Source: a virus
DNA length: 64,000 nt
Virus record (IMG/VR): IMGVR_UViG_3300045988_120991
Span: 32,001 to 96,000 of that record
Reading direction: 5' to 3' (one strand)
A program made the translations under genes and the position numbers. Shown one piece after another: positions 26,747 through 45,929 of this stretch (position 1 is its first letter; every line of letters begins with the position of its first letter). The notes beneath the pieces were generated by a model that was not told the origin of the DNA, made no database searches, and saw nothing but the letters and a program-made list of their open reading frames with translations.

Positions 26747-27304
26747 ATGAAGATTAATGAATTTTTAGATGTAGTTAATGCTAACAAGGCAAAATTGTAC
26801 AACAAAGCAAACAAAAATGCTTTGTCTGATTTTATTAAACAAACATTGAATGTAAAAGAATATTTACCAATTATAGATAAGCAGCATCTTGCCAAAAGAG
26901 TTATTGATGTTTGCACATTTGAAGAGAATGGAGTAATCAAGGTTGATTCATTCCAGAAGTATTTCTTATTTACCATTAATGTGCTACAGATGTATACGGA
27001 TTTAGAGTTTGATGTAGAGGGAGATATTTATGGTGAATATGATGAACTTTGTGCATGTGGTTTGTTAGATGAAATTCTTGGAACATTTAACGAGGATTAT
27101 GAACGTGCAAATACGGTGTTAAATATGCTTTATGCAGACATGATTGAAAACAATAACAGTGTTGCAAATCTTATAGGAAGCGCAATGAGTAGTGTGTCTG
27201 CTAGTGTAGATAGTTTAATTCATAGTCTTTCTGAAAAAATTTCAGAAATGAATACTGATATTAGCAATGAAGACATTGTTAAACTACAAAATTTCCTGAA
27301 GTGA
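26747..27304 (+). CDS. acidic protein upstream of the tape measure gene; possible tail assembly chaperone
   Basis: ATG 26747 lies 8 nt after GGAGG. The protein is acidic and helical and sits two genes before the TMP. No G/GT-type frameshift extension is possible (see rejected items). Confidence 0.4.
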   Translation: MKINEFLDVVNANKAKLYNKANKNALSDFIKQTLNVKEYLPIIDKQHLAKRVIDVCTFEENGVIKVDSFQKYFLFTINVLQMYTDLEFDVEGDIYGEYDELCACGLLDEILGTFNEDYERANTVLNMLYADMIENNNSVANLIGSAMSSVSASVDSLIHSLSEKISEMNTDISNEDIVKLQNFLK

Positions 27305-27315
27305 GGTGATTGTGT

Positions 27316-27810
27316 ATGGATGCAGCTATAAAGAAACTCATCGACCAAATGCGAAAAGATACTCAGGAAAATATTCGTAGGATTATGAGAGAAGCAGCAC
27401 GACAAGCCAGAGGAGATTTTGAAAGAGAAGCAAAACATCACATTGATAAATATTATTCTGAATGTGACCCATGGCCAGATTACAAAAGAACGTACACGCT
27501 TCGTGATTATGGTTACAGTCCATACACATTATGGAACAAAAATAAAGTGCAGGCGGGAGTACGTTTTACCGATAGAGATGCAGATTTCTCGTCTAGATAT
27601 GGAAGAGATATTAGCCCTGATGATGGTTGGAGAACTGGAATTGGTGGAATTGTTATGAGTAATTTTATGATTGGTTCACATGGACGACCAGAATTAAGTG
27701 GAACTGTTAAGGGAGACCCTATTGGAGAAAGAATGGAAGATTTTGAAAGATTGTATGCATATAAAATGGATGCATATTTTACTTCACAGGGTCTTACTAG
27801 AATAATTTGA
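27316..27810 (+). CDS. hypothetical protein immediately upstream of the tape measure gene (164 aa)
   Basis: ATG 27316 lies after GAGGTGA. No motif recognised with confidence. Confidence 0.45.
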   Translation: MDAAIKKLIDQMRKDTQENIRRIMREAARQARGDFEREAKHHIDKYYSECDPWPDYKRTYTLRDYGYSPYTLWNKNKVQAGVRFTDRDADFSSRYGRDISPDDGWRTGIGGIVMSNFMIGSHGRPELSGTVKGDPIGERMEDFERLYAYKMDAYFTSQGLTRII

Positions 27811-27821
27811 GGTGATATATT

Positions 27822-30800
27822 ATGGGTAAAAGAGGTCCCAGCGCACAGTATGCATATGGAATTACCATTGAAGCTGGTAATTATAATGAAGTAATAAATG
27901 GTTTTGAAAAAAGATTAAAGGATTTAGATAAAGTTACAAAAACTACTACTGCAACTTTTGCGGCTTTAAGCGAAGCAATGAAGTCTGGTAAGCGGGTTGA
28001 TTTTAGTAAGGCAGAAGGTCAGCTTACAGGTCTTGTTGCAGAAATGGAAGAAGTTGCTAAGTGGAGAGAACAATTGGCTGGTGGTCAGAAGCTTAGTGAT
28101 ATGTTTGATGGACTTGAACAAGTTAAGCAGAGCTTGGGTCAAGTTACAGGTCAACTTGACAAGTTTGGAGATAATATTGAAGAAATTTTTAGTATCTTGC
28201 AAAGTGTTCCTCAGAATACATCTAAAACATTTGTTGATATTAGAAAGGTTCTAAGCCAAACAGCTTCTGATATGAATAAAATTATAGCAGAACTTAATAA
28301 CCCTACTGAAAAAACTGATGTTTCTGGTTTAAAGAATCAGTTATCTAGTCTTGCTACGGATTTTGTTAATGAATGGAATAAGGCAGCCGCACAAGGTATT
28401 AAGATGGATCAGGTGGTTGATTTTAAACCTTTTGCAAATATAATAAAAACGGCTATAAATGGTGCAAGAAGCCTTGGCACCGAGTTTAATGATGTTTCAG
28501 CGTCTGTAACAGAAGCTACGAAAAATGTTGTTGCATTATATAATGTGAAGCATCCAACTGGTATGTTTAAAGATTTGGCGTCTGGCATATCCAATGTTGG
28601 AACGCAATCTAAAAAGACAGAACAGACCGTTGTTAAATTTAGTTCTGCGTTTAAGGCTGCAATTAGTATTGTTGACAAGTTTAGTAAGTCTGATATGGGT
28701 CTTTCCAAGAAGAACAAGGAAATGGACGAATTCTTGGCAAAACTTAAGAATCCAGAGATTACTATTGATTTAAAAAATAAAGAGGTAGAAGAAGAGTTTT
28801 ATAAATTAGCAGATATATATGACGATATTGTTGGTGCTAATAATATTACTCCAGAATTTTTAAAGAATTTGCCGATTGACAAACTCAAAGAGCTTGGATC
28901 AACATTGCAAAATATAATTGCTATGGGGAAAGAGTTTCCAGAGTTTATTAATACCGATGAGGATAATGAGGTATCAATACTAGATGCATATGGATCCGAT
29001 TTAAAGAAAGTAATTGAGGGAATCAAAGCACTATTAGATGAAGCGAATGCTCAAATAGCGGAATCTGTAAAAACGCTTAAGAGCCAACTTGAAGCACTTG
29101 GCTTAAAAGATATTGAACTTGATGTAAAGCTGGTTGATTTAACTGGCGATAAGGTTCAAGAATATGTAAATCAATTAAATCAGTTTGTTGATGATTTAAC
29201 AGGTCAACTTAAAAATAAGGGAGCTATAGAATTACCAGTAAACATTCAGATGCCCGGCATAACTCCTGATAACGCGGATTCTAAAAAGGCAAAAGATGTT
29301 ATTAGTGCCGCGATGGACGAGTACAGTGAAATTGCAAAGGATGCTAGCAAAGAAGCTACAAAAAATGCAAAAGGTAAAGCTATGTCCAAAATTATTAGTG
29401 GTGCATTTGGCTCAAATGAGAACTTGGACTTATATTTAAGTTATATTAAACAGCAGTTTAGTAAGATCAGAGAAACTGTTAGACAACAAAAAAAAGAAAT
29501 TCAAGATATGCTCTCTTTGGATTTCACTTGGAATAAAGGAGAAGCTAGTAATAGTTTTTCAAATCTTTTTGTTGAACTACAGGATTATTTTGCAGACCCT
29601 GAAAATGCAATAAAAGTTGAAATTGATAGTACTTATTTAAAAGATGGTATTAAAAACGCATTTAAAGATGCTGGGGGAATTGATTTAAAACTACCTTCTA
29701 GCGGTACTCCTATGGATCAATCTCAACTTGCTGCTGCTATAATTTCTGCATTTAGAGGAACTTTACCTACTGGTAGACAATCTTCTACACCAGTAACAAA
29801 ACAAACGACAACTTCTTCTAGCGCGTCTCCAGTAACAGAAGCAGACGTAAAGGATAGATTTGTATTTAACATAAAAGAGTTTATGTCTAAATATAGTGGA
29901 GAATTATCCGAGGGACTAAATCAAACATTAGAAAATATTGTTAATTCTGTAAGAGACGTTGCAAAAACTGCTAATGGCAGTAAAGTAAATCAAGAAGTTC
30001 GTGCAAAAATTCAAGCTGCGTTTGGTTCACTTGATTTATCTAAAGTTGCAGAAATGACAAACGAAGAAATTATTTCGTGGGTTCAAAATGCATTACTAAA
30101 GGCAGACGAATCTGGAAGAGCTATTGGTGCAGATTTACCAAAAGCTTTAGATAATACAAAGGTTTCTTGGAAGAGCGTATCTAATTTTACCAACGCTTTA
30201 AATCAACTCTTTATAAAAATAGAGAATGAAACAAGAGATGTAGAACAGGCCGCTAATGAAAGAAATAAAGTTGCTATTCTAAAAGATTTTGGTTATAGAG
30301 CAAGGGCAATTGATTCGAAGAGTGCCGTTGTAAGAAAGCTAGGTAAGGGTGAAGTAGATACAGACTTCTTAAAATCGCAAATGGAGAGGCTACAAAGTGT
30401 AAAGGCTTATAAAGATAGTCTCGGAGAAGAAGGTAGTAAAATAGTCAAGTGGTTAGATAGTGCAATTGCAATATATCAAAAATTAATAAATATAAGTAAT
30501 GGCACAACCACATTTAATACGGAAGCAGAAAAGCAAGAAGAAATTACGAAGCTTAGAGATGAGCTTTCTAAAATTAGAGTGTCTGACGATAAGAGTCTAA
30601 TAGAAACTCTTTCTGGTGAGATAACTGTATCTAAGAAGTATAAAAATGGAACAAAAAGTAGAGGTCAAAGAAAAGGGTTCACTGGAAGTTCTAGAAGTTT
30701 AGAAAAGGCTCTGTCTCTTATTGAAAAGACCGGTGACGACGGTGTAATCACTATAAAATTCACCTCGGGTCCAAATGATAAGGCATTTAAAGAATGGATA

Positions 30801-33800
30801 GAGTCAGAAAATGAGTATGGCAGAACTGTTAATACACTTAGACGTTCAAAGGACAATAATCTAAGAGGCGAAAGTAAATCTTCGTTGATAAGCCCAAGAG
30901 AAGATAGAGAGCGTTTGCTCGACCAAAAGATAGACTTTAAACCATTTTCGCAATCTAGAAAGCCGATTGATTGGGATGAATATAAAAATGACCTTCAAAG
31001 AAGATTGCAAGAAAATGAAGAGGCTTTAGCCGAGCAGCAAAAAATCGTTGATGAAGCAAGAAAGAATCTAACGTCTGCTAAGAGAGCGGTTTCATCTTCA
31101 TCTAAAAAAGTCTATAGTGGTTCTGGCGATATAAATGATGAATGGATTGCTAAAGAGGAAGATATATTGAAGTTGGCGACAGAAGATAAAAATTCTGGTC
31201 TAAACGATAAGTCAATAAAACAGTTATCTAAATTAGTAAAAAGCTCATATAGTAAAGATTCTAAAAGTTTCAAAAAGGCGTATGCAACCGCTCAAAAGGA
31301 CTTAGAATCTTTAATGTCAAAAGAGGCGACGGAAGATAATATTGCACAAGTTAAGTCTTTATTAGATTTTATTAATAGTTTGAATAGAGCTGCTGAAAAT
31401 TACACGTCTGCTGCTAAATATGTGGATGAAAAATTTGTTATAAACGAAGAAATTGACAAATCATTATTTGAAAGTGCGTCTAAAAGAGTCAGTGATGCCG
31501 GTGAAATAAAAGTAAAATCTAAGAAATACAAAGGGACAGGACTTCCACAAACTAATGTTAGCAAACTGGTTTCTGGAATTAAAAGAAAAGAGTCTATCGA
31601 GGAGTTTTCCAGTTATAGTTCTGCGTATCAAGAGCATATCAAGTCTTTGCTAGATAGTGCTTTGACTGATTTAAAAGAAACAATGCAGGGCAAAGATACT
31701 TCGGCAAACAGAAAAAAGATACAAAGTATACTTCAATATATTGATAATTTGAAGAGACAGTTTGACCAATTTAAAGAAATAGAACAGAAAATATATGAAG
31801 CATATAATTTTGGTAAAACTAAAAAAGATGTCAAATTTGAAAATCTTTCTTCTGTTGATAATATTATAGAAAATTATAAAACAGGGAAAGAAGTTTTACA
31901 AAGAAAAATCGAAGAGATAGATCAGCAGCTTGCGTATTTAGACCAACAAAAGGGTAATATAAAGCATTATACAGATGAACAAAAAGCCATAGCTAAGCTC
32001 CAACTAGATGCTTCAAATTATTATTCTGGAATATCTAAAGTAAAGCAGCTTGAATATAATTTTAATAATGCGCAAACAGAGCAAGAGAAAGAAAAGTTTG
32101 CACAATTATTGCAATCTGCTAAATCTCAAAATGCTAATGATGCTTCAAAAAATATTGGCAATGTAATAAAATTTATAGAAGAATTAGAGAGTAAATTGTC
32201 TGACAAAAACATATCGGAGCAAGATAGAAATACTCTTTCGTCCGTGTTACAAGAAGCTCAAAGTTTATTTAAAGAGCTAAATGTTGCTAATGTTACTGGG
32301 AAGACACCGTTATTTCAGATGTCTCAGTCTAGATACGAAGACATAATTGCAGACAATAGTGCCGAAGCAGAAAGAATTGCAGAAGCAGAGAAAAAAGCAT
32401 TAGCTAGAAGAGCGAAAGTTGTTGAAAAGCTAAATGATTTTGAAGCAAATTCTCCTGGTGCTGAAGCACTACGTAGAGCTTCTTCGGTAAAATCAGGAGA
32501 AAGCTATAGAAGTAAATCTATTTCTACCCAAATAGACAAAACAAATGCACAATCTGTTTTTAATGAGTCTGAAGAAAAATTGCGTGTATTAGAGAAAGAA
32601 AAAGAGGCACTTCAGGCAGAAAAAGAAAAAGTAGCAGAAAAAAAGAAGTACAATAATTTGTTAATTCAAGAAAAAAAATTAAAAGAAGAAATTGCTGCCG
32701 CAGATAAAGCTGGTGTATCTAGCGAAGAGAAAAAGATCGAATTAACAAAACTACAAGAAAAAATTGCAAAGCAAGAGAAAAAACTTGGAATAAACTTTGA
32801 AGAAGTAAGCCCATCAATGACAAAAGAAAAGGCTTTTGATAAAGCTTCTGAATATGATGCTCAAGAGAAATTACTTCGTAGTCAGGTTAAAGCGCTTGAA
32901 TCAAAAGTGGAAAGTGCGCAAGAGTTAATAAATAGCCTTACTGCTAGAGGGTTTAATTCTGCAAAAGGGGAAGCTGAACTTAGAAGGTTCACTAATGATA
33001 GAGTTGCAGATTTTAGAAGCAGTGATTATTTTAGAACAAAAAAAGATGAAATAAGAGATAAGTATCTTAAGGGTGTATATAAAGAAGACGGTACGCTTGA
33101 TAGCAGTGATAGTCTAGAAGGTAAAATACGAGAACTTGCCGATAAATATTCAAAGGATATAGATAAAATATTCTTTAATATAGCAGATGTAAAAGAAGGC
33201 AACGCGCAAGAATTTCTTAGCGGACTCATTGGAGATCAGACCAGGTTCTCTAATGCTTTTAAGGGCAACAATGATGTTGGGCAGAAGTTTATGGCCGATT
33301 ATGAAGAATTTAAATCTTTCTATTGGGAATTAATTAAAGAAGAAGAAAGTAAGGTCGTAGACGATTATAAGAAGTCTATAAAAGTAGATAAGCATAATGG
33401 GACCGTTTCGTATACTTCTTATGATGGAGATACTATCCAAGAGGTTGTTGTAGATTTAAAGAGTCAAATAATTCAAGGATTAAAGGAACAAATAGAGGCA
33501 GAACTTATGCCGACTCTTTCAGAAAAGACTGGTTTATTAGGAAGAGTTTCCGATTCAAAAAAACAAGCACTAGATTTTGCTGGTCTTAAAGAGTCCGATA
33601 TAAGAAATATAGATGTGGATAGCAAAATAGCTAGTCTTAAGTCTGATATTGAAGGTCTAAAATCAACAAACATATCTGCAAAAGATAGAGATATAGAAGG
33701 CGCAAAACAAAGAGATTTAGAACGTCAAAAAAGTATTATAGAAGAGATAGAAAGTGTAAATAGTAGAATAACATATAATGAAATAGATCAGATTAAGCTT

Positions 33801-36800
33801 GTGAGAGAACTGAATGCTGAAAAAGAAAATTATCTCAAAAGTATAAATAAAGATGGTTCGAAGTCTGATGCTGGTAAGATTGCTATAGAGAGACTAAAAA
33901 CGAACGCTACGGCAGAATATGTAAATAGTGATGCTTATAAATCACAAGTTGAAGCAATAAATAATAAGTATTATGGCAAGGGAGAAAATGGTAAATCACT
34001 ATTTGATGAGAGTATTGATAAGATTGTACCGAAATATAAAGATGCTATTTATCGTATTTTATCTAACACTTCTAAATATACAGAAGAAGAAATTGATGGA
34101 TTTTTAAAACTTATTCAAGATAATCCAGAGTTATATTCTAGTAGCGATGCATATTTTAAATTAGGAAAAACGAAAAATGCAGAAATGGCAAAAACTCTTT
34201 CAGACAATAGTGAAAGAGTGTGGTCTAACCTTGTTAGAGAATATTCTTCAATTAAAGGATTTGTAGAGGACGGAATAGAAAGAGATATTAAGGCTTTAAT
34301 TAAAAATTATAGAGACTCATTTGAAATAAATAATGATAACAATACAGTATCATATACTTCATATGTAAACGGTAAGGCAGAAAATGTTGTTAGAAATTTA
34401 AAAGAAACATTGCTATCTGTAATTAAACAAGAGATTGCGGATATATTATCTGGCAAAAATATTGACTCGATTGTAAATGATGTAGTTGGTAGTAAAGCAA
34501 AAGATTTATATAGTAAACGTAATTCTGCTACATATTTGCAAAAACAGTTAAAGGAGTTAGATGCTCAAAAACAAGTAATAGAATCTCGTATTGCAAGTGG
34601 CGCACTTTCTGAAGAAGACCAAAAAGAGGTAGACAAACAGTTAAAAGAAAAGAAAGCAATAGAAGATAAAATAGCTGTTTTGGAAAAAGAAATAGAGGCT
34701 TGGGAGTTTGTTAAAAAGGCAAGAGAAGAAGCAAGAGAATTAGATAAAAAAACCGACCAAGAAAGAGAAGCTACTGAACTTTCTAAGATTGAAAGATATG
34801 AGCAAAGCATTACAGAGAAGAAGGAAAAGCAAAGACAACTTCAAGAAGAACTAAATTTGCTTCGTGGAGAAGAAGTAAAAGATGTTGATACCATTGAAAG
34901 GAAAGAAAGTGAGCTTGAAGAGGTCACTAAGAAAATTACCGAACTAGAAGGAAAGAAGCAAAAATCCGAAGGTAGTCTTGGTAGAATTCGTGAAAGAATT
35001 GAGAATGCTCCAGTCGTATCTGAAGCTAGCTCTTCTGGTGGAGGTATACTTTCTCCCATTGTAAATCTTCTTACTGAAATTAGAGATATTTTGTCTAGAA
35101 TTTCTGGAGTTTCTGTAAAGAGTGGAGAAAGTGGCAAATCTGGTTCTGCTCCTAATTCTGGCGAAAAAACAAAGTCTGAAATAAATTCTATGCTTTCTAA
35201 GTATTGGTACAAGAAGAATGGTAAATCTGCTACACAAGAAGAATGGAAGCAGTTAAAACAAGATTATGTGGATGGAAAGCTAACAGACTTAGACGAGGTA
35301 TTGGCACAAGAGGTGCAGGCAAAAATTGAAAAAGAAAAGAAAGAAGACACAAAGCCTGTTGCAAAGAAAAACGATACAAAGAAGTCAGATGATAGATTTT
35401 CTAATATTCTTCGTCTTGCTGGGTTCAGAGATGAAAATAATAAGGCAATTCAACTAGCGTCGAAGTCTACTGACGAATTTTTAAGTGACGCACAAGCGTT
35501 ATATGATGATGTAAAAAATTGGTCTGGTGACAAAACATCTGATGAATATTTGGCCAAACAGCTTAGTCTGGGCAAAACATTAACGGCGTTGAGAAGTTCC
35601 TTACCAAGAACATATTCTGGAAAAAATGGATATACTAACGCAGAAGAATGGGCCAATTATTTATCCGAGAATGGTCTTTCTGGAGCAATGGAATCTTCTA
35701 TCAAAAACCAGAAGAATTTAAAGGCCGTTATTGAAAATGGCGTCACCGTTGTTGCTGAGGAAGTTGTTGAACAAGGTGTTGAAGAGGGCAAAAATGTTGC
35801 AGAAGAACCCAAACAAGAATCCACCTCTAAAAAACAAAAATATGCTGGTGGGCTAACCTGGTCTAAGGCGAAAGATGCTATTAAAAACGGAGCAAACAAA
35901 CCAGAAGATGGACTTTCGTTAGAGGAATATATTACTAAAGCTCAGTCTTTGTATAATGAAATAAATTCTTGGGTTGGGGAAAAGAATATAGAATACTTCT
36001 CTAAGAGACTTGAGCTTGGTTCTGTAATGCAAAAGGCTGCGGTCGCAGTAAAACAGGCAAATCCAGATAAAAAGTTTAAAAATACAGATTTGTATAATTA
36101 CTTTGCAAAACAGTACAACATGGAGAATGTCAATAGTCTTGCATTAACAGCAAAAAGACTTGATGGCAACAAAGAAATTATGGAAGCCTTGGCTGATGTT
36201 AAACCAGTAGATACAACTCCAGTAACTCAGTCGGTAGAGAACACTGACAATGCCGTCGTTGAACATGTGGCTGAAACTGCTAAGACTGTTGAAGAAGAAG
36301 TTAGGCAGACTGCTGAACAACAGAAACAAGTAGAATTAAGTAATGCAGAAAAGCTAAAACTCGCTAAAAAGGAACTTCAAAAACGTTTGGATGCTGCTAA
36401 GAGTATACAAGATGGCACAACGTTAAAAAGCAATAAAGTTATTGTTACGCATTCTGATGAATCAAAAAAAGGTGTAAAGTACTCATTAGACGAAAATATT
36501 GAATCAATAGATGAATTTGCCGAAGGAGTATGGAAACTGACAGAGGCGTTTAAGGATGGAGCAGACGCTGCAAATATTGAATATGGTTTTGCGACACAAA
36601 ATGGTAAGCGTATTCAGTTGGCAAAAGGCGATAATGATTCTGTAAACTTTACAAGATTCCATGGAGATATTGATTCTTTAACTCACTCACATTCGTACAC
36701 TAAAGGTGTAAACAATATGGTCTTCTCATTGGCGGATATTGACCAATTAGAAACATTAGGTACTAGAAATAATCTAAAGAGATATAATTTGATTTACGAC

Positions 36801-39800: not shown

Positions 39801-42800
39801 GAAAAATACATGAATAGTATTCAAGGTAGAATTGATCAATTTAACAATGCTTTACAAACAATGTGGTCAAGCGAACTTGATTCTGGTTTTGTAAAATTTA
39901 TTGTTAGCGCTGGTACTGCATTAGTAAAATTTATAGATACAATTGGTTTACTTCCATCTATCCTTACTATGATTGGAGCAATTAAACTTGGTAAAATCTT
40001 TTTGCCAAAAATGTGGACATCTTTAACTATTGCGGTTACAACCCATATTGCTGCACTTTCTGGAGAGACGGCTGCTATTGAAGCCTTAAATGGAGCAAAA
40101 GTAAAAGCTGCAATTATGGATTCTACTAGTATTAGTAATGATGTAAAAGAGATTGCGATTAAAACTTTATTAACTGGAGAAATCGGTAATGAAACAGTTG
40201 TAACTGATTTAAATACTGTCTCTAAAATTAAAGCAGCTTTAGCTCAACAGGGGCTTAACGATGCGCAAATTTCTGGTGTTCTTTCAGCTATGGGTTTAAC
40301 GACTGCAAATGTTGGTCTGGGCACATCTTTTAAATTGCTTGCTGCAAATATATGGAAGTCAATTAAAGCAATATTGGTATATATAGCTACAAATCCGTGG
40401 ACATGGGTTGCAATTGGAGCTACTGCAGCTATTATAGTAATAGCTAAGCTTACTAAAACTCACCAAGAGTATGTAAAAGAACTTAAAGAAACATCTGATG
40501 AAATATCTGATGTAAAATCTAATTTAAGCTCACTTGAAGATGAACTAAAATCCGTAAGCGATCGTATTGACGAGCTAAATTCCAAAGACAAACTTTCTTT
40601 CACGGAAAAAGAAGAATTAAAAAATCTAAAAGCACAAAATGCCGAACTTGAACGTTCAATTCGTATTGAGGAGCAAAAAGAAAAGAGGCTACAAAAGAAA
40701 GCTGCCAAGAACTTAAATGATGCCGTTAAAACAGATTATTCTATAAATGGTAAATCAACCGTATACAAAGATTCTGATGGGAATTATGTATCTCAAACGG
40801 TTGCAGTTGATCAGAGTGCTAATAATTATGCTCCTGGCAATGAAAAGCTAAATGATGGTTATTCCAAAGAAACTGTTTCTTCTATTCAAGCAAAAATTAT
40901 TGAATACGAAAGAACACAAAAAGAATTAGAAGAAGCGAAAGATGAATTGGAAAAACTTGGAGATGAAGCCGAAGATAAAGAAGTAAAAAATGCACAAGCG
41001 AAAGTAGATAGACTTCAAAGATCAGCAGATAGTGCGTATGATGCCATATCAAACACAATGGATAAATTTAATGAGGACTATTTAAGCCAAGATGGTGTTG
41101 AATGGCAATATGGTAATCCTGACGAATTAGAGGATTGGCAAAAGCAAATGAATGCCAACCTAAAGATAATTTATGATGCACAAGATAAATTAGCTATTGG
41201 GGCGGACAATACTGGGAAAGCCATCAAATCAGCATTTTCTCGTGTGACATTACAAACAGAATTCCGGGATGAATTAAAAGAAATTCAAGATACCGCCGGA
41301 ATTACCGGAGAGAAATTAAAAGAAATGTATGAAGCCGATAATTCTACTGACAATACCGGTATGAAGGCGTTAATTCAATCTCTTATGGATTGTGGTGTTA
41401 TTGCTAATGCATCTGCCGAAGAGTTGCAAAAGGTAGTAGATTTGTCATTAGAATTAGGAGATTCTGCATCTGATGCCGCAACGGCAAATAAAAAACTTGC
41501 TCGTTCTCAAAAAATGCTACAGTATAGCAGACTATATAAAGAACTCCATAAATATACAGATGCATTAAGAGACGGACGCAAAAGATCCGGAGAATTATTT
41601 GCCCAAGATAAAAAGTCTGTGCAAGCCATTAGAGAAAAAATGGCGGCTCTTTCAGAAGAAATATCTAAATATGATATTCTGGGCGACCAGATGAATGAAG
41701 CAAAAGAAGCATTTACAGATTTTGAAAATGCAAAAAAGTCATCAGAAGAAAATCCTGAATATATAGATACTGCCGGAGAAATGTTCCAAGCGGTAATTGA
41801 TGGGTTCCATAGTGCAGAAATGGGTTCCGAAACATTTAAGGCTGCATTTAAAGGACTAATACCAGAAAGTGTATATAAGGATTTAGATACATTAGAAGAA
41901 AGATATACTGCCGCAGGTGAATATGTCAAGAATACACTTAGCAGATATTTCAAGATTGAATATGATGATGATGGTGCAGTTAAGAGTGTTGAAACGACAA
42001 CTAAAAATATTGAAACATTTATAGAGGATGCAAAAGAAAAAGGTCTAATGTCTTTCTCTGATGGTGTTTGGACTGTTGAAGAAACTGATTTTAAAAAGTT
42101 TGCAGACAAAATGGGCATCACAGAGTCTATGCTGGTCGCTATTGGCACACAGATGGATAATATTGATGCGGACTGGATTATGGGGGATAATAGTAGCTTC
42201 TTTGATTCGTTTGATATGGGTACAGAAGCTAATATTTATAAAACCACAAAAGCTTTAACTGATTTAGATCAACAGTTTATAGACGGCAAAATAAGTGTAG
42301 ATGAATATACTCAAAAATATCAAGAGTTGCAAGATAAATTATCAGAAAATAAAGAAAATGCTATAAACGACATTATAAATTATGATAATGCAACGAAAAA
42401 AGTGGATGAGCTTCAAAATAGTCTTAAGGCTGCTACGGATAAATTAAATGAATTAAAAAATAATCCTGAAGCAACCGAAGATCAAATTGCTGAAGCGGCA
42501 AAAAATGCTAATGAGATAGCAACGAATTTGCAGACTGCTCTTCAGAATAAATCTGCTCTTGAAAAGCCATCGCAGGTACTTGTAGAATTTGCAGTTGCTA
42601 ATATTGAAGACGAAAAAGCAAAAATTGTTGCGGAATTAGGAACAATAGATGCTTCAATTAAACTTACTACTACCGATAAAGATGGTAAGGAACAAATAAA
42701 TAGTAGCATAATAAAACAACTTGATGATGGTACATACGAAATAAATGTTGATGCAAATCTTACAGAAGAATCAAAAGCAAAAGTGCAATCATATGTTGAT

Positions 42801-45800
42801 TTGTTAAACAAAGAAGCACAAATAAATTCGTATGTTGAAGGAGATCAAGGAGCAAAAGAAAGTGCAGATGATTTAAAAAAGACTTACGAAGATTTGTCTC
42901 AGGTAATAAAAGATTTGCCAAGTCCAAAAATCAATACATCTCTAGCACAATCTGCGGTTAATACTTTAAAGAAGACCGTAGATAACCTAAAGGATTCTTT
43001 TGATGATTTACCAACAGAAGTTACTACTACTGTTACTACTGTTAATAGAACTGTAAACGAAACAGTAGAGAGAAAGAGTACTGGATTTGGATGGATAGAT
43101 AAAATTCTTGGCCTTAACTTTGATGGCAATGCCCATTTTGATGGAGCTGCTAATGCCTCTGGTACTTTGGGTGCAGAAAAAACTGAAACATCTCTTGTTG
43201 GTGAGTTAGGCCCAGAGCTTCGTGTTCGTGGCAATCGTTGGGAAATGCTAGGAGAAAATGGCACAGAATTTGCAGACGTACAAAAGGGAGATATCATTTT
43301 TAACCATAAGCAAACCGAAGAACTTCTTAAAAACGGTCATATAAGTTCTCGTGGCAAGGCTTTTGTAGGTGGCACAGCGTATGCTGGTACAAGTGGAACA
43401 ATATTTACAAAATATGCGACAGAAAAAGACTATGGCGGTAAAGTTCCTGATTGGTATGGCCATGCCGATCTTCTTTATGATGCTGCTAATTCAGTATCTG
43501 ATGCTGCCGATGACATTTCTGATGCCGCTGATGACTTCGAAGAAGTATTTGATTGGTTCGAAGTTCTTCTAGAAGAAATTGAAGACAATATTAGCTTAAT
43601 GAATGCCAAGTTAGAAAATACAGTTGGTATAAGTGCAAAGAAAGGTATTTATTCTGAAATTTTAAATACAGAACAATTTAAGCTACAAGAATTATATGAG
43701 GGCATCAAACTATATTCTGATTATGCCAATAAGCTTCTTGCTAAAGTTCCAGATCAGTACAAAGAAATGGCTAAAAATGGCGCGGTCGCTATCACAGACT
43801 TCCTTGGTGAAGCAAACGAAGAAGTTGTAGACTCAATTAATAACTATCGTGAGTGGGCAAAGAAGGTATCTGACCTTAATCAGCAATTAGAAGAAACAAA
43901 GACGAAAATTTCTGACACCCACGTAGAAATACAGAATATGCTTAAAGATGAATATGACAATCGTATATCTTTAATTACTTCTGTAAATGACCGTATACAA
44001 GGTACAATAGATTTGCTTGATGAAGAAGGCAAACGTTCTTCTGCCGTAATGTATGAAGAAATGATAAAAAATAGTACAAAACAATTATCAGAACTTCAAA
44101 GCAAACGTGCAGAAATGCAGAGAGCATTGGACGAAGCCGTGAGAAGCGGAGACGTAGCTAGAGAAAGCACACAATGGTACGAGATGGTCAATGCAATCAA
44201 TGATGTCGATAGTGAAATTAATGATTGTAGAATTGACCTTGAAGGGTTCCAAAACTCTATTAATCAGCTTCATTGGGATAACTTTGAAAAGTTCATTGAT
44301 GCTATTGACAATGTTGGCAACGAAATCTCCAATCTAGGAGACCTAATCGACGAAGAAGACGTTGTTGATGAAGTCGGTAATTGGACAGATAAAGGTATTA
44401 CTGCACTTGGTTTGTACGCCCAAGAAATGGAACGTGCCAAATACAGAGCTGGACAATATGGTAAAGAAATTGAGTATCTAAATCAAGAATATGCGGCTGG
44501 AAAATATAGTGTTGATGAATACAATGAGAAGCTACAGGAACTAAAAGATGGTCAATGGGATAGCATTAAATCTTATGAAGCTGCAAAGAAGTCTATCATT
44601 GATTTGAATAAGACTCGTGTTGAGGCTATAAAAGATGGCATTCAGAAAGAAATAGATGCTTATTCAGAGCTTATTGACAAAAAGAAAGAAGAGTTAAGCT
44701 TACAAAAGGATGCGCATGACTTTTCTAAGCAAGTAACTGAACAGCAAAAAAATATTGCAAACATTCAAAAACAATTGGCTGCAATGGCCGGAGATAACTC
44801 TGCATCTGCAATTGCTAGGAGAAAACAATTAGAAGCAGAACTTGCTGCAGCACAAGAAGAACTCGATGAGCTATATTACAATCATAGTGTTGAAAAGCAG
44901 CAAGAAGCACTTGATAAATCCTTAGAGAATTATCAGGACGATAAGCAGAACGAAATGGATGCCCTTGACGAATCTCTCAAGAACGAAGAACAAATTATTG
45001 CAGATAGTTATGCCACTATTACGGCAAATACGGAATCTGTAGCACAAACATTATCTGATATAGCAAGTCAGTATGGGATTACCCTATCTGATTCTGTTAT
45101 GCAGCCTTGGCTAGATGGTGCTAATGCGATTGGTACTTATCAAGAGCAGTTAGACACCTCTATGAGTTCTTTCACTCAACAACTAGAGGCTCTCAAGCAG
45201 ATGTATGCCGACTTACAAAATCAGGCTGATAGTGCCGGTAGGAGTATGGTTGATGCGATAAATGGTAACAAATCCAAGACAGAGGGTGCAACATATACGC
45301 CGCCAACTCCATCGCAACCAAGCACTCCATCAAAGCCATCAAAACCGTCTGCTCCATCTACTGGCTCGTCTGTTACAGTGAAAAAATCTGCAACACGCTT
45401 TTCAAGAGATGGCGGCAATGGTACTAGAATGCAGTCATGGGTCCCTGGTTCAACGTTTACTGTTTATCAGGTTAGTGATTCAGAAGTTCTAATTGGAAGA
45501 AATGGTCAATATACTGGATGGGTGCGTCTATCTGATATTGAAGGATATGCAAAGGGTACTAAAGAAATTCAAAATAACCAATTAGCAATGCTAGACGAAC
45601 TTGGAGACGAGTTGGTTTTACATGCCGGTAAGAATGGCAGGTTAGAATATCTAACCAAGGGTACATCTGTTGTTCCAGCAGATATTACAAGCAACTTAAT
45701 GAAGCTTGGCTCCCTAGACCCGAAGGATATTCTTGAAAGAAATAGACCTTCTATTGGTGCTCCACATGTTATTGATAATAGTATAGAGTTAAAAATGGAA

Positions 45801-45929
45801 TTTGGCAGTCTTGTACATGTTGATACTGTTTCAAACGATACATTGCCATACTTGCAAAAGATGGTCAGAAATGAGTTTGATAATTGCATGAAACACGTAA
45901 ATCAAGGGCTAAAGAAATTTGTTCGTTAA
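27822..45929 (+). CDS. tmp: giant tape-measure-type protein (6,035 aa)
   Basis: GAGGTG RBS and a single uninterrupted 18,108-nt ORF.
- A TP901-type TMP core sits at about 38920-39880 (ALTELKKVTDETDETYAQFLNTMSQTGAEVGATVKDL...NFAISSDGIATALQDSASSLMAAGNNLEQSVAMIAAANKVLQDP...LRTISLRIRG).
- Hydrophobic helices follow at about 39910-40450.
- K/E-rich helical sequence lies on both sides of the core.
- A Pro/Ser/Thr linker is at 45291-45372, followed by an SH3b-like segment at 45373-45545.
- A typical TMP C-terminal tail closes the ORF.
- Dit-like and Tal-like genes follow. Confidence 0.85.
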   Translation: MGKRGPSAQYAYGITIEAGNYNEVINGFEKRLKDLDKVTKTTTATFAALSEAMKSGKRVDFSKAEGQLTGLVAEMEEVAKWREQLAGGQKLSDMFDGLEQVKQSLGQVTGQLDKFGDNIEEIFSILQSVPQNTSKTFVDIRKVLSQTASDMNKIIAELNNPTEKTDVSGLKNQLSSLATDFVNEWNKAAAQGIKMDQVVDFKPFANIIKTAINGARSLGTEFNDVSASVTEATKNVVALYNVKHPTGMFKDLASGISNVGTQSKKTEQTVVKFSSAFKAAISIVDKFSKSDMGLSKKNKEMDEFLAKLKNPEITIDLKNKEVEEEFYKLADIYDDIVGANNITPEFLKNLPIDKLKELGSTLQNIIAMGKEFPEFINTDEDNEVSILDAYGSDLKKVIEGIKALLDEANAQIAESVKTLKSQLEALGLKDIELDVKLVDLTGDKVQEYVNQLNQFVDDLTGQLKNKGAIELPVNIQMPGITPDNADSKKAKDVISAAMDEYSEIAKDASKEATKNAKGKAMSKIISGAFGSNENLDLYLSYIKQQFSKIRETVRQQKKEIQDMLSLDFTWNKGEASNSFSNLFVELQDYFADPENAIKVEIDSTYLKDGIKNAFKDAGGIDLKLPSSGTPMDQSQLAAAIISAFRGTLPTGRQSSTPVTKQTTTSSSASPVTEADVKDRFVFNIKEFMSKYSGELSEGLNQTLENIVNSVRDVAKTANGSKVNQEVRAKIQAAFGSLDLSKVAEMTNEEIISWVQNALLKADESGRAIGADLPKALDNTKVSWKSVSNFTNALNQLFIKIENETRDVEQAANERNKVAILKDFGYRARAIDSKSAVVRKLGKGEVDTDFLKSQMERLQSVKAYKDSLGEEGSKIVKWLDSAIAIYQKLINISNGTTTFNTEAEKQEEITKLRDELSKIRVSDDKSLIETLSGEITVSKKYKNGTKSRGQRKGFTGSSRSLEKALSLIEKTGDDGVITIKFTSGPNDKAFKEWIESENEYGRTVNTLRRSKDNNLRGESKSSLISPREDRERLLDQKIDFKPFSQSRKPIDWDEYKNDLQRRLQENEEALAEQQKIVDEARKNLTSAKRAVSSSSKKVYSGSGDINDEWIAKEEDILKLATEDKNSGLNDKSIKQLSKLVKSSYSKDSKSFKKAYATAQKDLESLMSKEATEDNIAQVKSLLDFINSLNRAAENYTSAAKYVDEKFVINEEIDKSLFESASKRVSDAGEIKVKSKKYKGTGLPQTNVSKLVSGIKRKESIEEFSSYSSAYQEHIKSLLDSALTDLKETMQGKDTSANRKKIQSILQYIDNLKRQFDQFKEIEQKIYEAYNFGKTKKDVKFENLSSVDNIIENYKTGKEVLQRKIEEIDQQLAYLDQQKGNIKHYTDEQKAIAKLQLDASNYYSGISKVKQLEYNFNNAQTEQEKEKFAQLLQSAKSQNANDASKNIGNVIKFIEELESKLSDKNISEQDRNTLSSVLQEAQSLFKELNVANVTGKTPLFQMSQSRYEDIIADNSAEAERIAEAEKKALARRAKVVEKLNDFEANSPGAEALRRASSVKSGESYRSKSISTQIDKTNAQSVFNESEEKLRVLEKEKEALQAEKEKVAEKKKYNNLLIQEKKLKEEIAAADKAGVSSEEKKIELTKLQEKIAKQEKKLGINFEEVSPSMTKEKAFDKASEYDAQEKLLRSQVKALESKVESAQELINSLTARGFNSAKGEAELRRFTNDRVADFRSSDYFRTKKDEIRDKYLKGVYKEDGTLDSSDSLEGKIRELADKYSKDIDKIFFNIADVKEGNAQEFLSGLIGDQTRFSNAFKGNNDVGQKFMADYEEFKSFYWELIKEEESKVVDDYKKSIKVDKHNGTVSYTSYDGDTIQEVVVDLKSQIIQGLKEQIEAELMPTLSEKTGLLGRVSDSKKQALDFAGLKESDIRNIDVDSKIASLKSDIEGLKSTNISAKDRDIEGAKQRDLERQKSIIEEIESVNSRITYNEIDQIKLVRELNAEKENYLKSINKDGSKSDAGKIAIERLKTNATAEYVNSDAYKSQVEAINNKYYGKGENGKSLFDESIDKIVPKYKDAIYRILSNTSKYTEEEIDGFLKLIQDNPELYSSSDAYFKLGKTKNAEMAKTLSDNSERVWSNLVREYSSIKGFVEDGIERDIKALIKNYRDSFEINNDNNTVSYTSYVNGKAENVVRNLKETLLSVIKQEIADILSGKNIDSIVNDVVGSKAKDLYSKRNSATYLQKQLKELDAQKQVIESRIASGALSEEDQKEVDKQLKEKKAIEDKIAVLEKEIEAWEFVKKAREEARELDKKTDQEREATELSKIERYEQSITEKKEKQRQLQEELNLLRGEEVKDVDTIERKESELEEVTKKITELEGKKQKSEGSLGRIRERIENAPVVSEASSSGGGILSPIVNLLTEIRDILSRISGVSVKSGESGKSGSAPNSGEKTKSEINSMLSKYWYKKNGKSATQEEWKQLKQDYVDGKLTDLDEVLAQEVQAKIEKEKKEDTKPVAKKNDTKKSDDRFSNILRLAGFRDENNKAIQLASKSTDEFLSDAQALYDDVKNWSGDKTSDEYLAKQLSLGKTLTALRSSLPRTYSGKNGYTNAEEWANYLSENGLSGAMESSIKNQKNLKAVIENGVTVVAEEVVEQGVEEGKNVAEEPKQESTSKKQKYAGGLTWSKAKDAIKNGANKPEDGLSLEEYITKAQSLYNEINSWVGEKNIEYFSKRLELGSVMQKAAVAVKQANPDKKFKNTDLYNYFAKQYNMENVNSLALTAKRLDGNKEIMEALADVKPVDTTPVTQSVENTDNAVVEHVAETAKTVEEEVRQTAEQQKQVELSNAEKLKLAKKELQKRLDAAKSIQDGTTLKSNKVIVTHSDESKKGVKYSLDENIESIDEFAEGVWKLTEAFKDGADAANIEYGFATQNGKRIQLAKGDNDSVNFTRFHGDIDSLTHSHSYTKGVNNMVFSLADIDQLETLGTRNNLKRYNLIYDNEMMSLNLGKNSQEAAEAIADCYPQINDVVMAMLSREDGNSIPAENTEEMARILNGYLQKVVEDAGGRLSVVNSKGENVTSKYSITDDEYNKFNNVLAKFQSYYDNNFGSVSKSDHVSVIRQYLSEEFGKEFMANITSKSNANPHGGLYTEFSAIPEYDDEDKKMLDYAEQVTLYSKKIVAAEKAFVESLQKMSNEDLMSFINQAEETLGVKKEPEVKPTLTKAQIAALNPDDVTALQKASIKQFSKVRNWNENNVGNIEGFLGADNKTLVAYKTQFEELAKIALDLKAKGESGTIITKDDISQLDIAISKTKELQTALTKEAQFKQMKDAGLIVSGKTKIKSTDSYSERQDIMAQYAKKYAAQNKSEYQFGQYDFINDKISFNMIDSAGQVTKVIMGWSDAFNTAYIQSSKLQGSLDKITQEVYKTDEAIKAGEEYGFFQEQSEGVKAYKDALAEYEAQVKAVAKSSQKDLAQNFEELHTAQEKAINAGRDLLDKQKDAYGFNNAQKVLGRTGDVDAVLQNYRDQGINVNDIELVRNYNDAMGDLNKKIEELKKNGKLWDANEQPGLKLLADRAIEAEKALLKADEAQRQLNGEVIKGKNAKFFEGINPNNVDQVKQAMEQYARSINGVDAQSIKWSEDQKTLSYSVRTGKREVSDFTIGVKELTNEFYEARTGTRAVKTGMEEFLGSIGDKFKEVGRYLLSFGSFYRVWGEIQKGVTYVREIDSALTELKKVTDETDETYAQFLNTMSQTGAEVGATVKDLTNMAANWARLGYSIQEAGELAKSTAVLLNVSEFTDADTASKALISTMQAYGYAAEDSMHVVDVLNEIGNNFAISSDGIATALQDSASSLMAAGNNLEQSVAMIAAANKVLQDPNSVGSALRTISLRIRGTSVKVLEEMGEETDGVIESVSKLQAKVKGLSGVDILTDTGAYKDTYTIIKEIGQVWEQMNDINRAALLELLAGKNRSNAMAALLTNMEDLEGAYEDAMAAQGSAEAENEKYMNSIQGRIDQFNNALQTMWSSELDSGFVKFIVSAGTALVKFIDTIGLLPSILTMIGAIKLGKIFLPKMWTSLTIAVTTHIAALSGETAAIEALNGAKVKAAIMDSTSISNDVKEIAIKTLLTGEIGNETVVTDLNTVSKIKAALAQQGLNDAQISGVLSAMGLTTANVGLGTSFKLLAANIWKSIKAILVYIATNPWTWVAIGATAAIIVIAKLTKTHQEYVKELKETSDEISDVKSNLSSLEDELKSVSDRIDELNSKDKLSFTEKEELKNLKAQNAELERSIRIEEQKEKRLQKKAAKNLNDAVKTDYSINGKSTVYKDSDGNYVSQTVAVDQSANNYAPGNEKLNDGYSKETVSSIQAKIIEYERTQKELEEAKDELEKLGDEAEDKEVKNAQAKVDRLQRSADSAYDAISNTMDKFNEDYLSQDGVEWQYGNPDELEDWQKQMNANLKIIYDAQDKLAIGADNTGKAIKSAFSRVTLQTEFRDELKEIQDTAGITGEKLKEMYEADNSTDNTGMKALIQSLMDCGVIANASAEELQKVVDLSLELGDSASDAATANKKLARSQKMLQYSRLYKELHKYTDALRDGRKRSGELFAQDKKSVQAIREKMAALSEEISKYDILGDQMNEAKEAFTDFENAKKSSEENPEYIDTAGEMFQAVIDGFHSAEMGSETFKAAFKGLIPESVYKDLDTLEERYTAAGEYVKNTLSRYFKIEYDDDGAVKSVETTTKNIETFIEDAKEKGLMSFSDGVWTVEETDFKKFADKMGITESMLVAIGTQMDNIDADWIMGDNSSFFDSFDMGTEANIYKTTKALTDLDQQFIDGKISVDEYTQKYQELQDKLSENKENAINDIINYDNATKKVDELQNSLKAATDKLNELKNNPEATEDQIAEAAKNANEIATNLQTALQNKSALEKPSQVLVEFAVANIEDEKAKIVAELGTIDASIKLTTTDKDGKEQINSSIIKQLDDGTYEINVDANLTEESKAKVQSYVDLLNKEAQINSYVEGDQGAKESADDLKKTYEDLSQVIKDLPSPKINTSLAQSAVNTLKKTVDNLKDSFDDLPTEVTTTVTTVNRTVNETVERKSTGFGWIDKILGLNFDGNAHFDGAANASGTLGAEKTETSLVGELGPELRVRGNRWEMLGENGTEFADVQKGDIIFNHKQTEELLKNGHISSRGKAFVGGTAYAGTSGTIFTKYATEKDYGGKVPDWYGHADLLYDAANSVSDAADDISDAADDFEEVFDWFEVLLEEIEDNISLMNAKLENTVGISAKKGIYSEILNTEQFKLQELYEGIKLYSDYANKLLAKVPDQYKEMAKNGAVAITDFLGEANEEVVDSINNYREWAKKVSDLNQQLEETKTKISDTHVEIQNMLKDEYDNRISLITSVNDRIQGTIDLLDEEGKRSSAVMYEEMIKNSTKQLSELQSKRAEMQRALDEAVRSGDVARESTQWYEMVNAINDVDSEINDCRIDLEGFQNSINQLHWDNFEKFIDAIDNVGNEISNLGDLIDEEDVVDEVGNWTDKGITALGLYAQEMERAKYRAGQYGKEIEYLNQEYAAGKYSVDEYNEKLQELKDGQWDSIKSYEAAKKSIIDLNKTRVEAIKDGIQKEIDAYSELIDKKKEELSLQKDAHDFSKQVTEQQKNIANIQKQLAAMAGDNSASAIARRKQLEAELAAAQEELDELYYNHSVEKQQEALDKSLENYQDDKQNEMDALDESLKNEEQIIADSYATITANTESVAQTLSDIASQYGITLSDSVMQPWLDGANAIGTYQEQLDTSMSSFTQQLEALKQMYADLQNQADSAGRSMVDAINGNKSKTEGATYTPPTPSQPSTPSKPSKPSAPSTGSSVTVKKSATRFSRDGGNGTRMQSWVPGSTFTVYQVSDSEVLIGRNGQYTGWVRLSDIEGYAKGTKEIQNNQLAMLDELGDELVLHAGKNGRLEYLTKGTSVVPADITSNLMKLGSLDPKDILERNRPSIGAPHVIDNSIELKMEFGSLVHVDTVSNDTLPYLQKMVRNEFDNCMKHVNQGLKKFVR

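Follow-up and report, generated by a model that had tools for sequence, protein, structure and literature searches.

Control of the tail's length by a ruler protein is a textbook mechanism. That the tape measure protein (TMP) by its own length sets the length of the tail was established by Katsura's deletions in lambda gpH, as cited in PMC9022992. Phage PMBT24 has a TMP of 1,508 amino acids (aa) and a tail of 238 nm, or 1.58 Å/aa (PMC11035940), and the Gordonia phage Hotorobo has a 9,984-bp TMP gene (3,327 aa) and a tail of ~540 nm, or 1.62 Å/aa (PMC4982279). The TMP of P23-45 reaches 5,002 aa (PMC10770324), and the abstract of a preprint gives this phage a tail of ~800 nm, or 1.6 Å/aa (bioRxiv 10.1101/2022.12.01.518664). 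Current views on the upper limit and make-up of very long rulers rest on essentially one system, P23-45/P74-26. Here we describe a TMP gene of 6,035 codons in a 64,000-nt stretch of viral DNA (positions 32,001 to 96,000 of IMG/VR record IMGVR_UViG_3300045988_120991; hereafter the window), which extends the known range of TMP length by 20% and belongs to common human-gut phages. An earlier note on this DNA had singled out the gene for its extreme length and had applied to it a scaling of ~1.5 Å per residue. Both points hold, as the protein is 20% longer than the P23-45 TMP (PMC10770324) and the three measured phages, up to 5,002 aa, scale at ~1.5–1.6 Å/aa.

The window protein resembles the TP901-1-type TMPs in matching the family core above curated cut-offs, in the hydrophobic helices that follow this core, in its low-proline, helical-looking sequence and in its flanking chaperone-like, Dit-like and Tal-like genes. 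However, TP901-1-type TMPs typically have ~900–2,000 aa, with no more than a few hundred residues ahead of the core, whereas 3,708 aa precede the core of the window TMP. SPbeta YomI, of the phrog_4211 type (2,285 aa), aligns at the core with 24% identity (E = 6.5e-41). Like SPbeta, the window phage is large and looks temperate, with an integrase near its tail genes and tail-gene synteny to yomK/J-yomI-yomH-yomG. YomI has ~400 aa ahead of the core and most related gut contigs have 240–740, whereas the window TMP has ~3,300 additional residues there. The gp96 protein of the Thermus phages P23-45/P74-26 (5,002 aa, tail ~0.8–0.9 µm, N-terminal virion RNA polymerase) is likewise a giant TMP with an enzyme-like folded domain ahead of its membrane and TMP parts. 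It shares no sequence similarity with the window TMP, which is 1,033 aa longer, carries its domain internally (aa 2890–3140) and comes from a phage of mesophilic gut Bacillota. The 3,327-aa TMPs of the Gordonia phages Hotorobo, Woes and Monty are also very long, and their measured tails of ~540 nm obey ~1.6 Å/aa; they have about half the length of the window TMP, no embedded enzyme has been reported in them, and their lineage is unrelated. Giant TMPs and enzyme-carrying TMPs are therefore already known. What is new is the record length, the presence of such a gene in ~150-kb phages common in the human gut, the natural series of N-terminal cassettes exchanged between near-identical backbones and, as a candidate, a JAB/MPN-like domain within a TMP.

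The giant open reading frame (ORF) is real and intact, and it is under purifying selection. It had been described as an uninterrupted frame with a good ribosome-binding site ahead of Dit-like and Tal-like genes, and so it is: a GAGGTGA motif precedes the 6,035 codons, the plus-strand frame at 27822–45929 has no internal stop across 18.1 kb, and a DUF6558 gene and a phrog_6211 gene follow. The longest ORF in a competing frame within these limits is 213 aa. Local base composition predicts stops at ~8% of random codons. The probability that 6,035 codons stay open by chance is therefore ~e^-500, and the frame is not a product of chance. Giant uninterrupted homologues of 5,483–5,681 aa come from independent human-gut assemblies. 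The Logan contig L001 has a TMP called at 5,483 aa, the IMG/VR contigs L005 and L006 (146–168 kb) have uninterrupted frames of 5,671 and 5,679 codons, and the database representative P0006 is a giant TMP of 5,652 aa. The N-terminal type of the window itself is found in L011 (84% aa identity over aa 1–3773) and in two human-gut contigs in which it stays open up to the end of the locus, namely L014 (94.5% nucleotide identity, 1,611 codons) and the 142-kb contig L015 (85% nucleotide identity, 3,667 codons). Between the window and L011, the ratio of non-synonymous to synonymous substitution rates (dN/dS) is 0.05–0.24 in each 250-codon interval of aa 1–3763, and just 13 codons are unaligned. The extension is therefore a translated polypeptide that is constrained in both sequence and length.

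The gene encodes a true TP901-type TMP. PF10145 (PhageMin_Tail) matches aa 3742–3958 with 82.7 bits against a cut-off of 33.2, and TIGR01760 (tape_meas_TP901) matches aa 3709–4035 with 112.3 bits against a cut-off of 28.8. The region around this core (aa ~3635–4290) is nearly invariant across the clade. The earlier note had recognised the core, at aa ~3,700–4,020, but had taken it for the only part with a TMP signature; positions 205–2572 of the 2625 in the profile phrog_4211 (tail length tape measure protein) align collinearly with aa 3287–6035, so that the TMP-like part is wider. Profile positions 1–204 have no detectable counterpart in the window TMP. The C-terminal ~2,900 aa correspond to a 'standard' long TMP of the SPbeta YomI/phrog_4211 type. 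Hydrophobic helices had been reported after the core, and Kyte-Doolittle peaks above 1.5 are indeed restricted in the whole protein to aa 4026–4061 and 4193–4211. Beyond a variable stretch (aa ~4290–4560), the C-terminal body (aa 4560–6035) is 93% identical in L008, 58% in L005 and 44% in L009. Searches of aa 1–3713 and aa 4201–6035 against PDB sequences returned one sub-threshold SMC match only, and neither a lytic transglycosylase nor any other muralytic domain was detected in the window TMP. The ending had been read as a Pro/Ser/Thr linker, an SH3b-like segment and a typical TMP tail. The linker (aa 5826–5847) is present, and the tail is typical, since the final 130 aa are kept across the clade and the C-terminal end is 46% identical even in L009. 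The middle segment did not produce a significant Pfam or PDB match. It is a unit of ~68 aa, possibly SH3-like, which is conserved in L005–L008, L034, L036 and L021 and absent in L009; an SH3_16 match is weak (E = 0.046, in two of seven homologues), the segment of the window TMP matches nothing in Pfam at E ≤ 10, and single-sequence and profile searches of the PDB gave only chance matches to antibodies and NS3. In L016 this small domain occurs in two tandem copies (20121–20567).

All-against-all comparison of the related proteins defines the boundaries of six parts, termed N1, V, M, core, variable stretch and C-terminal body, of which the first three make up most of the sequence ahead of the core. 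The N-terminal extension (~3,300 extra aa) is a selected, fast-swapping and modular add-on. Module N1 is the conserved N-terminal end, with a dN/dS of 0.05 over aa 1–250. Its first ~30 aa (…YAYGITIEAGNYNEVINGFEKRLKDLDK) form an alternating-hydrophobic strand and a helix, as do the N-termini of YomI, L008, L009 and P0012, a likeness that is qualitative and judged by eye. Module V is an exchangeable cassette. At the DNA level, L001 and the window share 98% identity as far as 28927 and then once more from 36293 onwards, and across the intervening break (28928–36292) 7.4 kb of the window are swapped for 5.7 kb in L001, with no similarity detected save one collinear stretch at 27–29% identity. V has no detectable similarity to the matching 1,750 aa of L001 and L005. 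The V type of the window recurs in L011 (84% aa), L014 (94.5% nt), L015 (85% nt) and P0001 (80%). Two internal repeats are present, one of ~300-aa units and a second, short one that pairs aa 2549–2587 with aa 2699–2736 (E = 3e-6). Neither V nor the whole of aa 1–3280 has a match in Pfam, PHROGs, NCBIfam or PDB sequences. Module M was found in full in just six proteins, of 3,124–5,652 aa, by an exhaustive HMMER search of 1.84 billion representatives. Contigs L008 and L009 lack N1, V and M and have instead an unrelated N-terminal region of ~1,465 aa, for TMPs of ~3,860 aa, and P0012 has yet another unrelated N-terminal type, with 3,761 aa ahead of the core.

These comparisons modify the picture of the extension from which we started. 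It is not a block of 3,700 aa appended to a TMP, because the extra sequence sits between an N-terminus that looks TMP-like by eye and the core, which is anchored at aa 3716. The K/E/S-rich, helical-looking character attributed to both flanks of the core is borne out by composition, with K+E at 0.16–0.30 and proline at ~1.3% all along the protein. Within the extension proline is ~1.1–1.5%, and helix propensity is indistinguishable from that of the C-terminal TMP body. A featureless helix it is not, given the duplications and a folded α/β domain in module M.

This domain, at aa 2890–3140, was modelled with AlphaFold2 (AF2) as one 294-aa tile, to which AF2 modelling of the TMP was confined. A first run with three sequences was unusable (pLDDT 45) and was superseded by a run with nine, which predicted a confident domain (pLDDT 83, pTM 0.80). 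Residues E2920, H2955, H2957, S2969 and D2972 are invariant in the nine sequences, at identities as low as 41%. The arrangement E…HxH…S..D is like the metal-binding JAMM signature E…H-x-H-x(7)-S-x(2)-D, but HxH and S are separated by 11 residues rather than ~7, and no Pro follows HxH. The best Foldseek matches in the PDB are all JAMM/MPN proteins (STAMBP/AMSH, Sst2 and the Jab1 domain of Prp8), with cytidine deaminases next; all are weak (E 0.13–0.5, TM 0.2–0.38, probability 0.54–0.87). In BFVD, fold matches were obtained to uncharacterised phage proteins (E 1e-5 to 1e-3), with several 'minor capsid protein' entries, and further to a Clandestinovirus deubiquitination hydrolase (E 8.5e-3) and RadC (E 0.16). 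Pfam has no match for the folded domain, nothing relevant came from a profile search of the PDB, and the hhalign comparison with lambda gpK had a probability of 0.3%, though it placed motif against motif (IDSLTHSHSY against IVALVHSHPG of gpK). Since the Pfam, PDB profile and gpK tests were non-significant, the domain is described here only as resembling JAB/MPN; the assignment is not established. A full-text literature search found no earlier report of a JAB/MPN-like candidate enzyme in a TMP. The N-termini of standard family members map to aa ~3,080–3,330 of the window TMP, just past the folded domain.

Two other kinds of embedded enzyme were considered and rejected. For a zincin or M23 peptidase, a lysin or a transglycosylase, no HExxH motif occurs anywhere in the 6,035 aa and there are no Pfam, NCBIfam or PHROG matches beyond TMP families. 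For an RNA polymerase of the P23-45 type, no DxDxD or DFDGD motif occurs in the 6,035 aa; among PDB sequences there is no match at E ≤ 1 for aa 1–2900 and none of relevance for aa 2813–3713.

On balance, we lean towards a reading in which the whole length of the protein acts as the ruler, with a predicted tail of ~0.9–1.0 µm. This reading is favoured because of the TMP-like N-terminus, the TMP-body-like composition, the graded lengths of related TMPs and the precedent of P23-45, in which the scaling fits all 5,002 aa, the N-terminal folded RNA polymerase of ~1,100 aa included. The entire polypeptide would lie in the tail lumen and set the length of the tail at ~1.5–1.6 Å per residue. Its standard part would consist of the core, presumed membrane-inserting hydrophobic helices, a long helical body and a conserved C-terminal end docking at the Dit/Tal tip, and at infection the TMP would be expelled ahead of the DNA. 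The folded domain, ~600 aa upstream of the core, would be a virion-delivered putative enzyme of presumed catalytic activity, whose substrate would be either the TMP, which it would process, or a protein of the host or of its defences; lysin domains and the RNA polymerase in other TMPs would be its analogues. At the scaling of the measured phages, simple arithmetic predicts a tail of 0.91–0.98 µm for 6,035 aa, and 0.58–0.92 µm for the sister phages. Neither a tail of 0.8–1 µm (the earlier note had placed ~0.9 µm far outside the usual range) nor a TMP with an N-terminal enzyme is without precedent, as P23-45 and P74-26 have both.

Several observations weigh against a ruler of this length. A folded α/β domain of ~250 aa, present in at least three copies, would fit poorly into a lumen of ~4 nm and into an extended trimer that fills it; the figure of 1.5 Å/aa may therefore not apply to all of the protein. 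The assignment of this domain to JAB/MPN is itself weak, given the Foldseek E-values, the negative Pfam and PDB profile searches, the 0.3% against gpK and the spacing of 11 residues. In L008, the C-terminal half is 93% identical and the N-terminal region is unrelated and 2,170 aa shorter; elsewhere, flanking DNA of 98% identity encloses unrelated central cassettes that differ by ~550 aa. Such cassette swaps and length differences suggest an exchangeable accessory region more than a tightly tuned ruler. Matches to SMC/Rad50-type coiled coils and to the PDB (E ≤ 1) occur in the C-terminal body and not in the extension.

A less probable, though still serious, alternative is that the ruler comprises just the C-terminal ~2,900 aa, for a tail of ~0.43–0.47 µm, and that the N-terminal ~3,100 aa are an exchangeable accessory, synthesised within one polyprotein, that is cleaved off or delivered as cargo. 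Cutting could take place during assembly or after ejection, possibly by the JAB/MPN-resembling domain at the junction, or the arm could deliver effector or anti-defence functions. Consistent with this, a protease-like domain sits right where the extension meets the standard TMP, as proteins of standard relatives begin at the equivalent of aa ~3,080–3,330, immediately past aa 2890–3140. A ruler that is simply extended cannot accommodate a folded, enzyme-like domain, near-identical phages differ by cassette-like swaps with length differences of 550–2,170 aa, and the extension lacks coiled-coil-type matches. However, the tail of P23-45 fits the whole 5,002 aa (1.6 Å/aa) and not the protein minus its enzyme, and the extreme N-terminus of the window TMP is TMP-like by eye and the most strongly conserved part (dN/dS 0.05). 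Moreover, the JAB/MPN-resembling domain is missing both from P0012, with its 3,761 aa ahead of the core, and from L008 and L009, with their extensions of ~1,500 aa, so that processing by this domain could not be general. There is no conserved strong internal start site for separate expression, and the JAB/MPN-resembling domain is the only one of an enzymatic or effector kind that the searches detected in the 3,300 aa.

Precedents for cargo of this kind exist. Closest in concept are the TMP-fused virion RNA polymerase (PMC10770324) and the polyvalent proteins of phages and ICEs that carry JAB domains of the RadC type (Iyer et al. 2017, PMC5512222), which are injected with the DNA and separated by embedded peptidases. 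Others are TMP-related effectors of contractile injection systems (CIS) such as Sle1, with swappable functional domains (PMC13277306). The window TMP is like the polyvalent proteins in having a JAB-resembling domain within a giant, reshuffled polypeptide that is predicted to enter the host. Unlike it, polyvalent proteins are usually MuF- or head-associated and have many recognisable enzyme domains, whereas the extension has one candidate in 3,300 aa. The Sle1 CIS effectors are similar by description, as TMP-like scaffolds with exchangeable modules that are loaded into a tube and ejected; they differ in belonging to contractile injection systems of Actinobacteria and in the C-terminal position of their functional domains. 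Lambda gpK, a tail assembly protein with JAB and NlpC/P60 domains, provides a JAB precedent in tail morphogenesis. The similarity of the domain in the window TMP to JAB is a weak one of fold and motif only.

Some bacterial defence systems attach ubiquitin-like conjugates to phage tail proteins, and these would be a candidate target of the putative metallopeptidase. A tentative and, in our view, somewhat unlikely extension of the cargo idea is a two-part TMP in a widespread clade of ~150-kb gut phages. A standard ruler would here be joined to a swapped N-terminal 'payload arm' of 1,500–3,700 aa, which would be expelled before the DNA and would include a JAB/MPN-resembling metallopeptidase. Candidate roles for this enzyme would be self-processing of the polyprotein, or stripping or cleaving of host defence factors.

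It is highly improbable that the giant gene arose by in-frame fusion of an unrelated upstream gene to a normal TMP, which would make the first ~3,300 aa foreign to TMP function. Such a fusion might account for the lack of a TMP family match in the N-terminal 3,280 aa, and in the more distant relative L004 the TMP region (8700–13680) is called as four separate genes. The three breaks in L004 are, however, frameshifts and not gene boundaries, because homology continues across each of them, and one falls on an A8 run (13570–13580); they may stem from errors in sequencing A-rich coding DNA or mark a decaying copy. Upstream of the TMP gene, 16 related loci whose TMPs are shorter have just small chaperone-like ORFs and no large gene. 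The N-terminal motif is, by eye, common to ordinary TMPs. Related contigs have TMPs of 2,123, 2,246, 2,318, 2,373, 2,584, 2,615, 2,647, 3,395, 3,530, 3,647, 3,947, ~3,990 and ~4,150 aa, followed by those of 5,483–6,035 aa. Their pre-core lengths, from GTDB and other loci, are graded in clusters of ~240–740, ~1,415–1,722, ~3,000–3,200 and ~3,710 aa. The earlier note had raised the possibility of a fused, unrelated gene; no relative carries a separate gene of this kind, and an origin of the extension from one was rejected on the grounds of the L004 frameshifts and the 16 loci. An internal start for a separate 'standard' TMP was likewise rejected, as no strong Shine-Dalgarno sequence with ATG is found near aa 3,000–3,400, where the in-frame candidates are weak and begin with TTG or GTG. 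The TMP-like N-terminus (by eye), the internal duplications and the graded lengths without an upstream gene argue for expansion rather than fusion, and we conclude from these sequence comparisons that the extra residues were inserted and expanded ahead of the core, behind a TMP-like N-terminus. Growth of these ~3,300 aa probably came about through duplication together with the exchange of helical modules by recombination.

The weakest alternative is an artefact, whether through chimeric assembly, collapse of a repeat or decay of a pseudogene that is open by luck, and it can practically be set aside: the source is metagenomic and the TMP gene is a mosaic, with the closest relatives of its segments spread over different phages, but the 18.1-kb open run is beyond chance, purifying selection extends along the sequence tested (aa 1–3763), and every mosaic junction is bridged by at least one independent assembly (N1-V-M in L011 and L015, M-core in L001 and P0004, core to C-terminus in L008). 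An assembly artefact from long exact or tandem repeats was rejected, as a full-length self-BLAST of the TMP returned no long exact internal repeats and nothing at E ≤ 1e-3, and searches with tiles gave only diverged duplications at ~25% identity. One related ENA contig, L010 (5545–5817), follows the window TMP at 80% aa identity to aa 1211 and then turns into unrelated sequence that looks coding on the opposite strand, a point in favour of artefact; the switch may reflect insertion into the V cassette or the chimeric end of a contig.

The TMP family constitutes a natural allelic series, from ~2,100 aa upwards and, on a near-identical backbone, from ~3,900 to 6,035 aa with exchangeable cassettes of ~2,000 aa. 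It is suited to testing the scaling of 1.5 Å per residue up to ~1 µm, the accommodation of folded domains in the tail tube and the role of TMP extensions as injected cargo. Should the arm be part of the ruler too, tails of ~0.9–1.0 µm would exceed those of all other known viruses; if the JAB/MPN-resembling domain is active, it would represent a new kind of TMP-borne enzyme; and if the tail is ordinary, TMP gene length would be no blind predictor of tail length in metagenomic phages. The coordinates of the TMP gene, its parts and its neighbours are collected in Table 1.

Table 1. Features of the giant TMP gene and its neighbourhood (positions in the window unless a related contig is named).
Feature	Position	Strand	Basis or remark
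Putative tail assembly chaperone, 190-aa ORF	26732..27304	+	By position only; weak PHROG match its sole family hit
Second putative chaperone-like gene, 166-aa ORF	27310..27810	+	Position; likely start ATG 27316 after GAGGTGA ribosome-binding site
Ribosome-binding site GAGGTGA	27809..27815	+	6 nt before TMP ATG; identical start context in L005–L007
Tape measure protein gene	27822..45929	+	6,035 codons, 672 kDa, pI 5.0; matches to family hidden Markov models
Module N1 (aa 1–517), conserved N-terminal end	27822..29372	+	68% in L001/L005/L007; 27–34% in most distant relatives
Module V (aa ~518–2812), hypervariable exchangeable cassette	29373..36257	+	Unrelated in L001/L005; dN/dS 0.11–0.24
Internal duplication in V (aa 1703–1998 / 2005–2345)	32928..34856	+	~300-aa units, 25% identity; tile-versus-protein BLASTP E = 1.7e-9, 1.3e-7
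Module M (aa 2813–3634), conserved in giant TMPs only	36258..38723	+	79–97% in L001/L005/L007/P0004; 41% in P0005/L004
Folded α/β domain resembling JAB/MPN (aa 2890–3140)	36489..37241	+	AF2 model; invariant E2920, H2955, H2957, S2969, D2972
TP901-type TMP core (aa 3709–4035)	38946..39926	+	TIGR01760; PF10145 at aa 3742–3958
Hydrophobic, transmembrane-like segments (aa 4026–4061, 4193–4211)	39897..40454	+	Kyte-Doolittle scan
C-terminal helical, coiled-coil-rich TMP body (aa 4212–5825)	40455..45296	+	phrog_4211 alignment; sub-threshold SMC/Rad50 coiled-coil matches
Pro/Ser/Thr-rich linker (aa 5826–5847)	45297..45362	+	Read from translation
Small conserved domain, possibly SH3-like, unproven (aa ~5848–5915)	45363..45566	+	Conservation; weak SH3_16 match
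Conserved TMP C-terminal end (aa 5905–6035)	45534..45926	+	46% identical even in L009
Dit-like distal tail protein	45998..47101	+	DUF6558 N- and C-terminal domains above cut-off; position of SPbeta yomH
Tal-like minor tail protein, 1,630 aa	47116..52008	+	phrog_6211 E = 2.6e-34 over N-terminal 220 aa; position of SPbeta yomG
Tail protein	52024..53784	+	DUF859 (siphovirus family) and Peptidase_S74 chaperone domain
Core insert in L004	L004:14529-14947
Core insert in L007	L007:11420-12624
Core insert in L008	L008:10769-11998		ORF 10901-11857
Core insert in L009	L009:10844-12032		ORF 10942-11880
Core insert in L011	L011:12934-14117		ORF 13046-13954

In many relatives, the TMP core is interrupted by inserts of ~0.6–1.3 kb at five or more sites (equivalents of aa ~3766, 3773, 3823, 3870 and 3890), whereas the core of the window TMP is uninterrupted. 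The C-terminal ends of P0008 and P0010–P0012 also fall at core interruptions. Three of the inserts carry ORFs of 302–318 aa, of treble-clef Zn-finger, CapR, DUF723, DUF2726 or DUF5889 types. The insert in L004 matches the group I intron model RF00028 with 39.9 bits (E = 8.7e-7), under the gathering score of 50, and the insert in L011 gave no intron match with Rfam in E-value mode. At gathering thresholds, Rfam found nothing in the window, L004, L007, L008 or L009. The extreme conservation of the core may result from homing-associated co-conversion. In the isolate Thomasclavelia phage TR-TP1, the TMP is split in a similar way, with two 'HNH endonuclease' ORFs of the DUF2726 type.

The TMP gene is flanked by chaperone-like ORFs upstream, which are recognised by position and conservation only, and by Dit-like and Tal-like genes downstream. 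The 166-aa ORF has no PHROG or Pfam family match. A pair of small ORFs ahead of the TMP gene is also found in L001, L002, L004, L008 and L009 and in SPbeta (yomK/yomJ). Upstream, the order of genes is several tail-fibre-like genes, an Amidase_3/CW_7 endolysin, a holin-like gene, a RuvC resolvase and the 190-aa and 166-aa ORFs. Placement of the endolysin/holin cassette and RuvC resolvase (24541–26698) between the fibre genes and the TMP gene is unusual and SPbeta-like. Downstream, the Dit-like, phrog_6211 and DUF859/Peptidase_S74 genes are followed on the opposite strand by a tyrosine integrase and nucleotide-metabolism genes. The position of the integrase (54577–55728) directly after the tail genes is again SPbeta-like.

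With the core alignment, a scan of GTDB recovered 32 contigs from metagenome-assembled genomes (MAGs) of the gut (L016–L047), many of them 147–165 kb in size. Their bins conflict, with Faecalimonas, Roseburia and Lachnospiraceae/Clostridia on one side and Prevotella, Alistipes, Paludibacteraceae and Odoribacter on the other. Several of the 147–165-kb contigs are probably whole phage genomes that have been mis-binned, so that host labels taken from the bins are unreliable. Similarities of the endolysin and tail proteins point to gut Clostridia and to Streptococcus-type cell walls. The phage is of a temperate-looking siphovirus type, of ~145–170 kb, and probably infects human-gut Bacillota. A megablast search against isolate phages found no relative at the DNA level, and the window contains no tRNA gene.

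Downstream of the integrase, the gene for the large subunit of ribonucleotide reductase (RNR) is split on the minus strand (59603–61570 and 57260–58645), with an ORF for a LAGLIDADG endonuclease (58760–59467) between the two pieces, and the split is probably an intron. The upstream piece (59603–61570) also holds Hint/intein-splicing domains, which indicate an intein. The phage lineage is heavily colonised by self-splicing elements. Beside the RNR gene, ThyX, an NT5C-type deoxyribonucleotidase and a C5 cytosine methyltransferase-like gene (61561–63867, minus strand) form a nucleotide-metabolism and DNA-modification block.

Among the tail-fibre-like genes lies a second very large gene (7977–14927, plus strand), whose 2,316-aa product matches phrog_14959/24896, of unknown function, and has a C-terminal DUF6273. 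Four fibre- or spike-like genes on the plus strand (3162–3719, 3744–5006, 6355–7881 and 16944–17864) have in common an N-terminal module of ~60 aa that matches phrog_19976/6049/31660/24754/2332, which suggests that they encode alternative fibres docking via one anchor.

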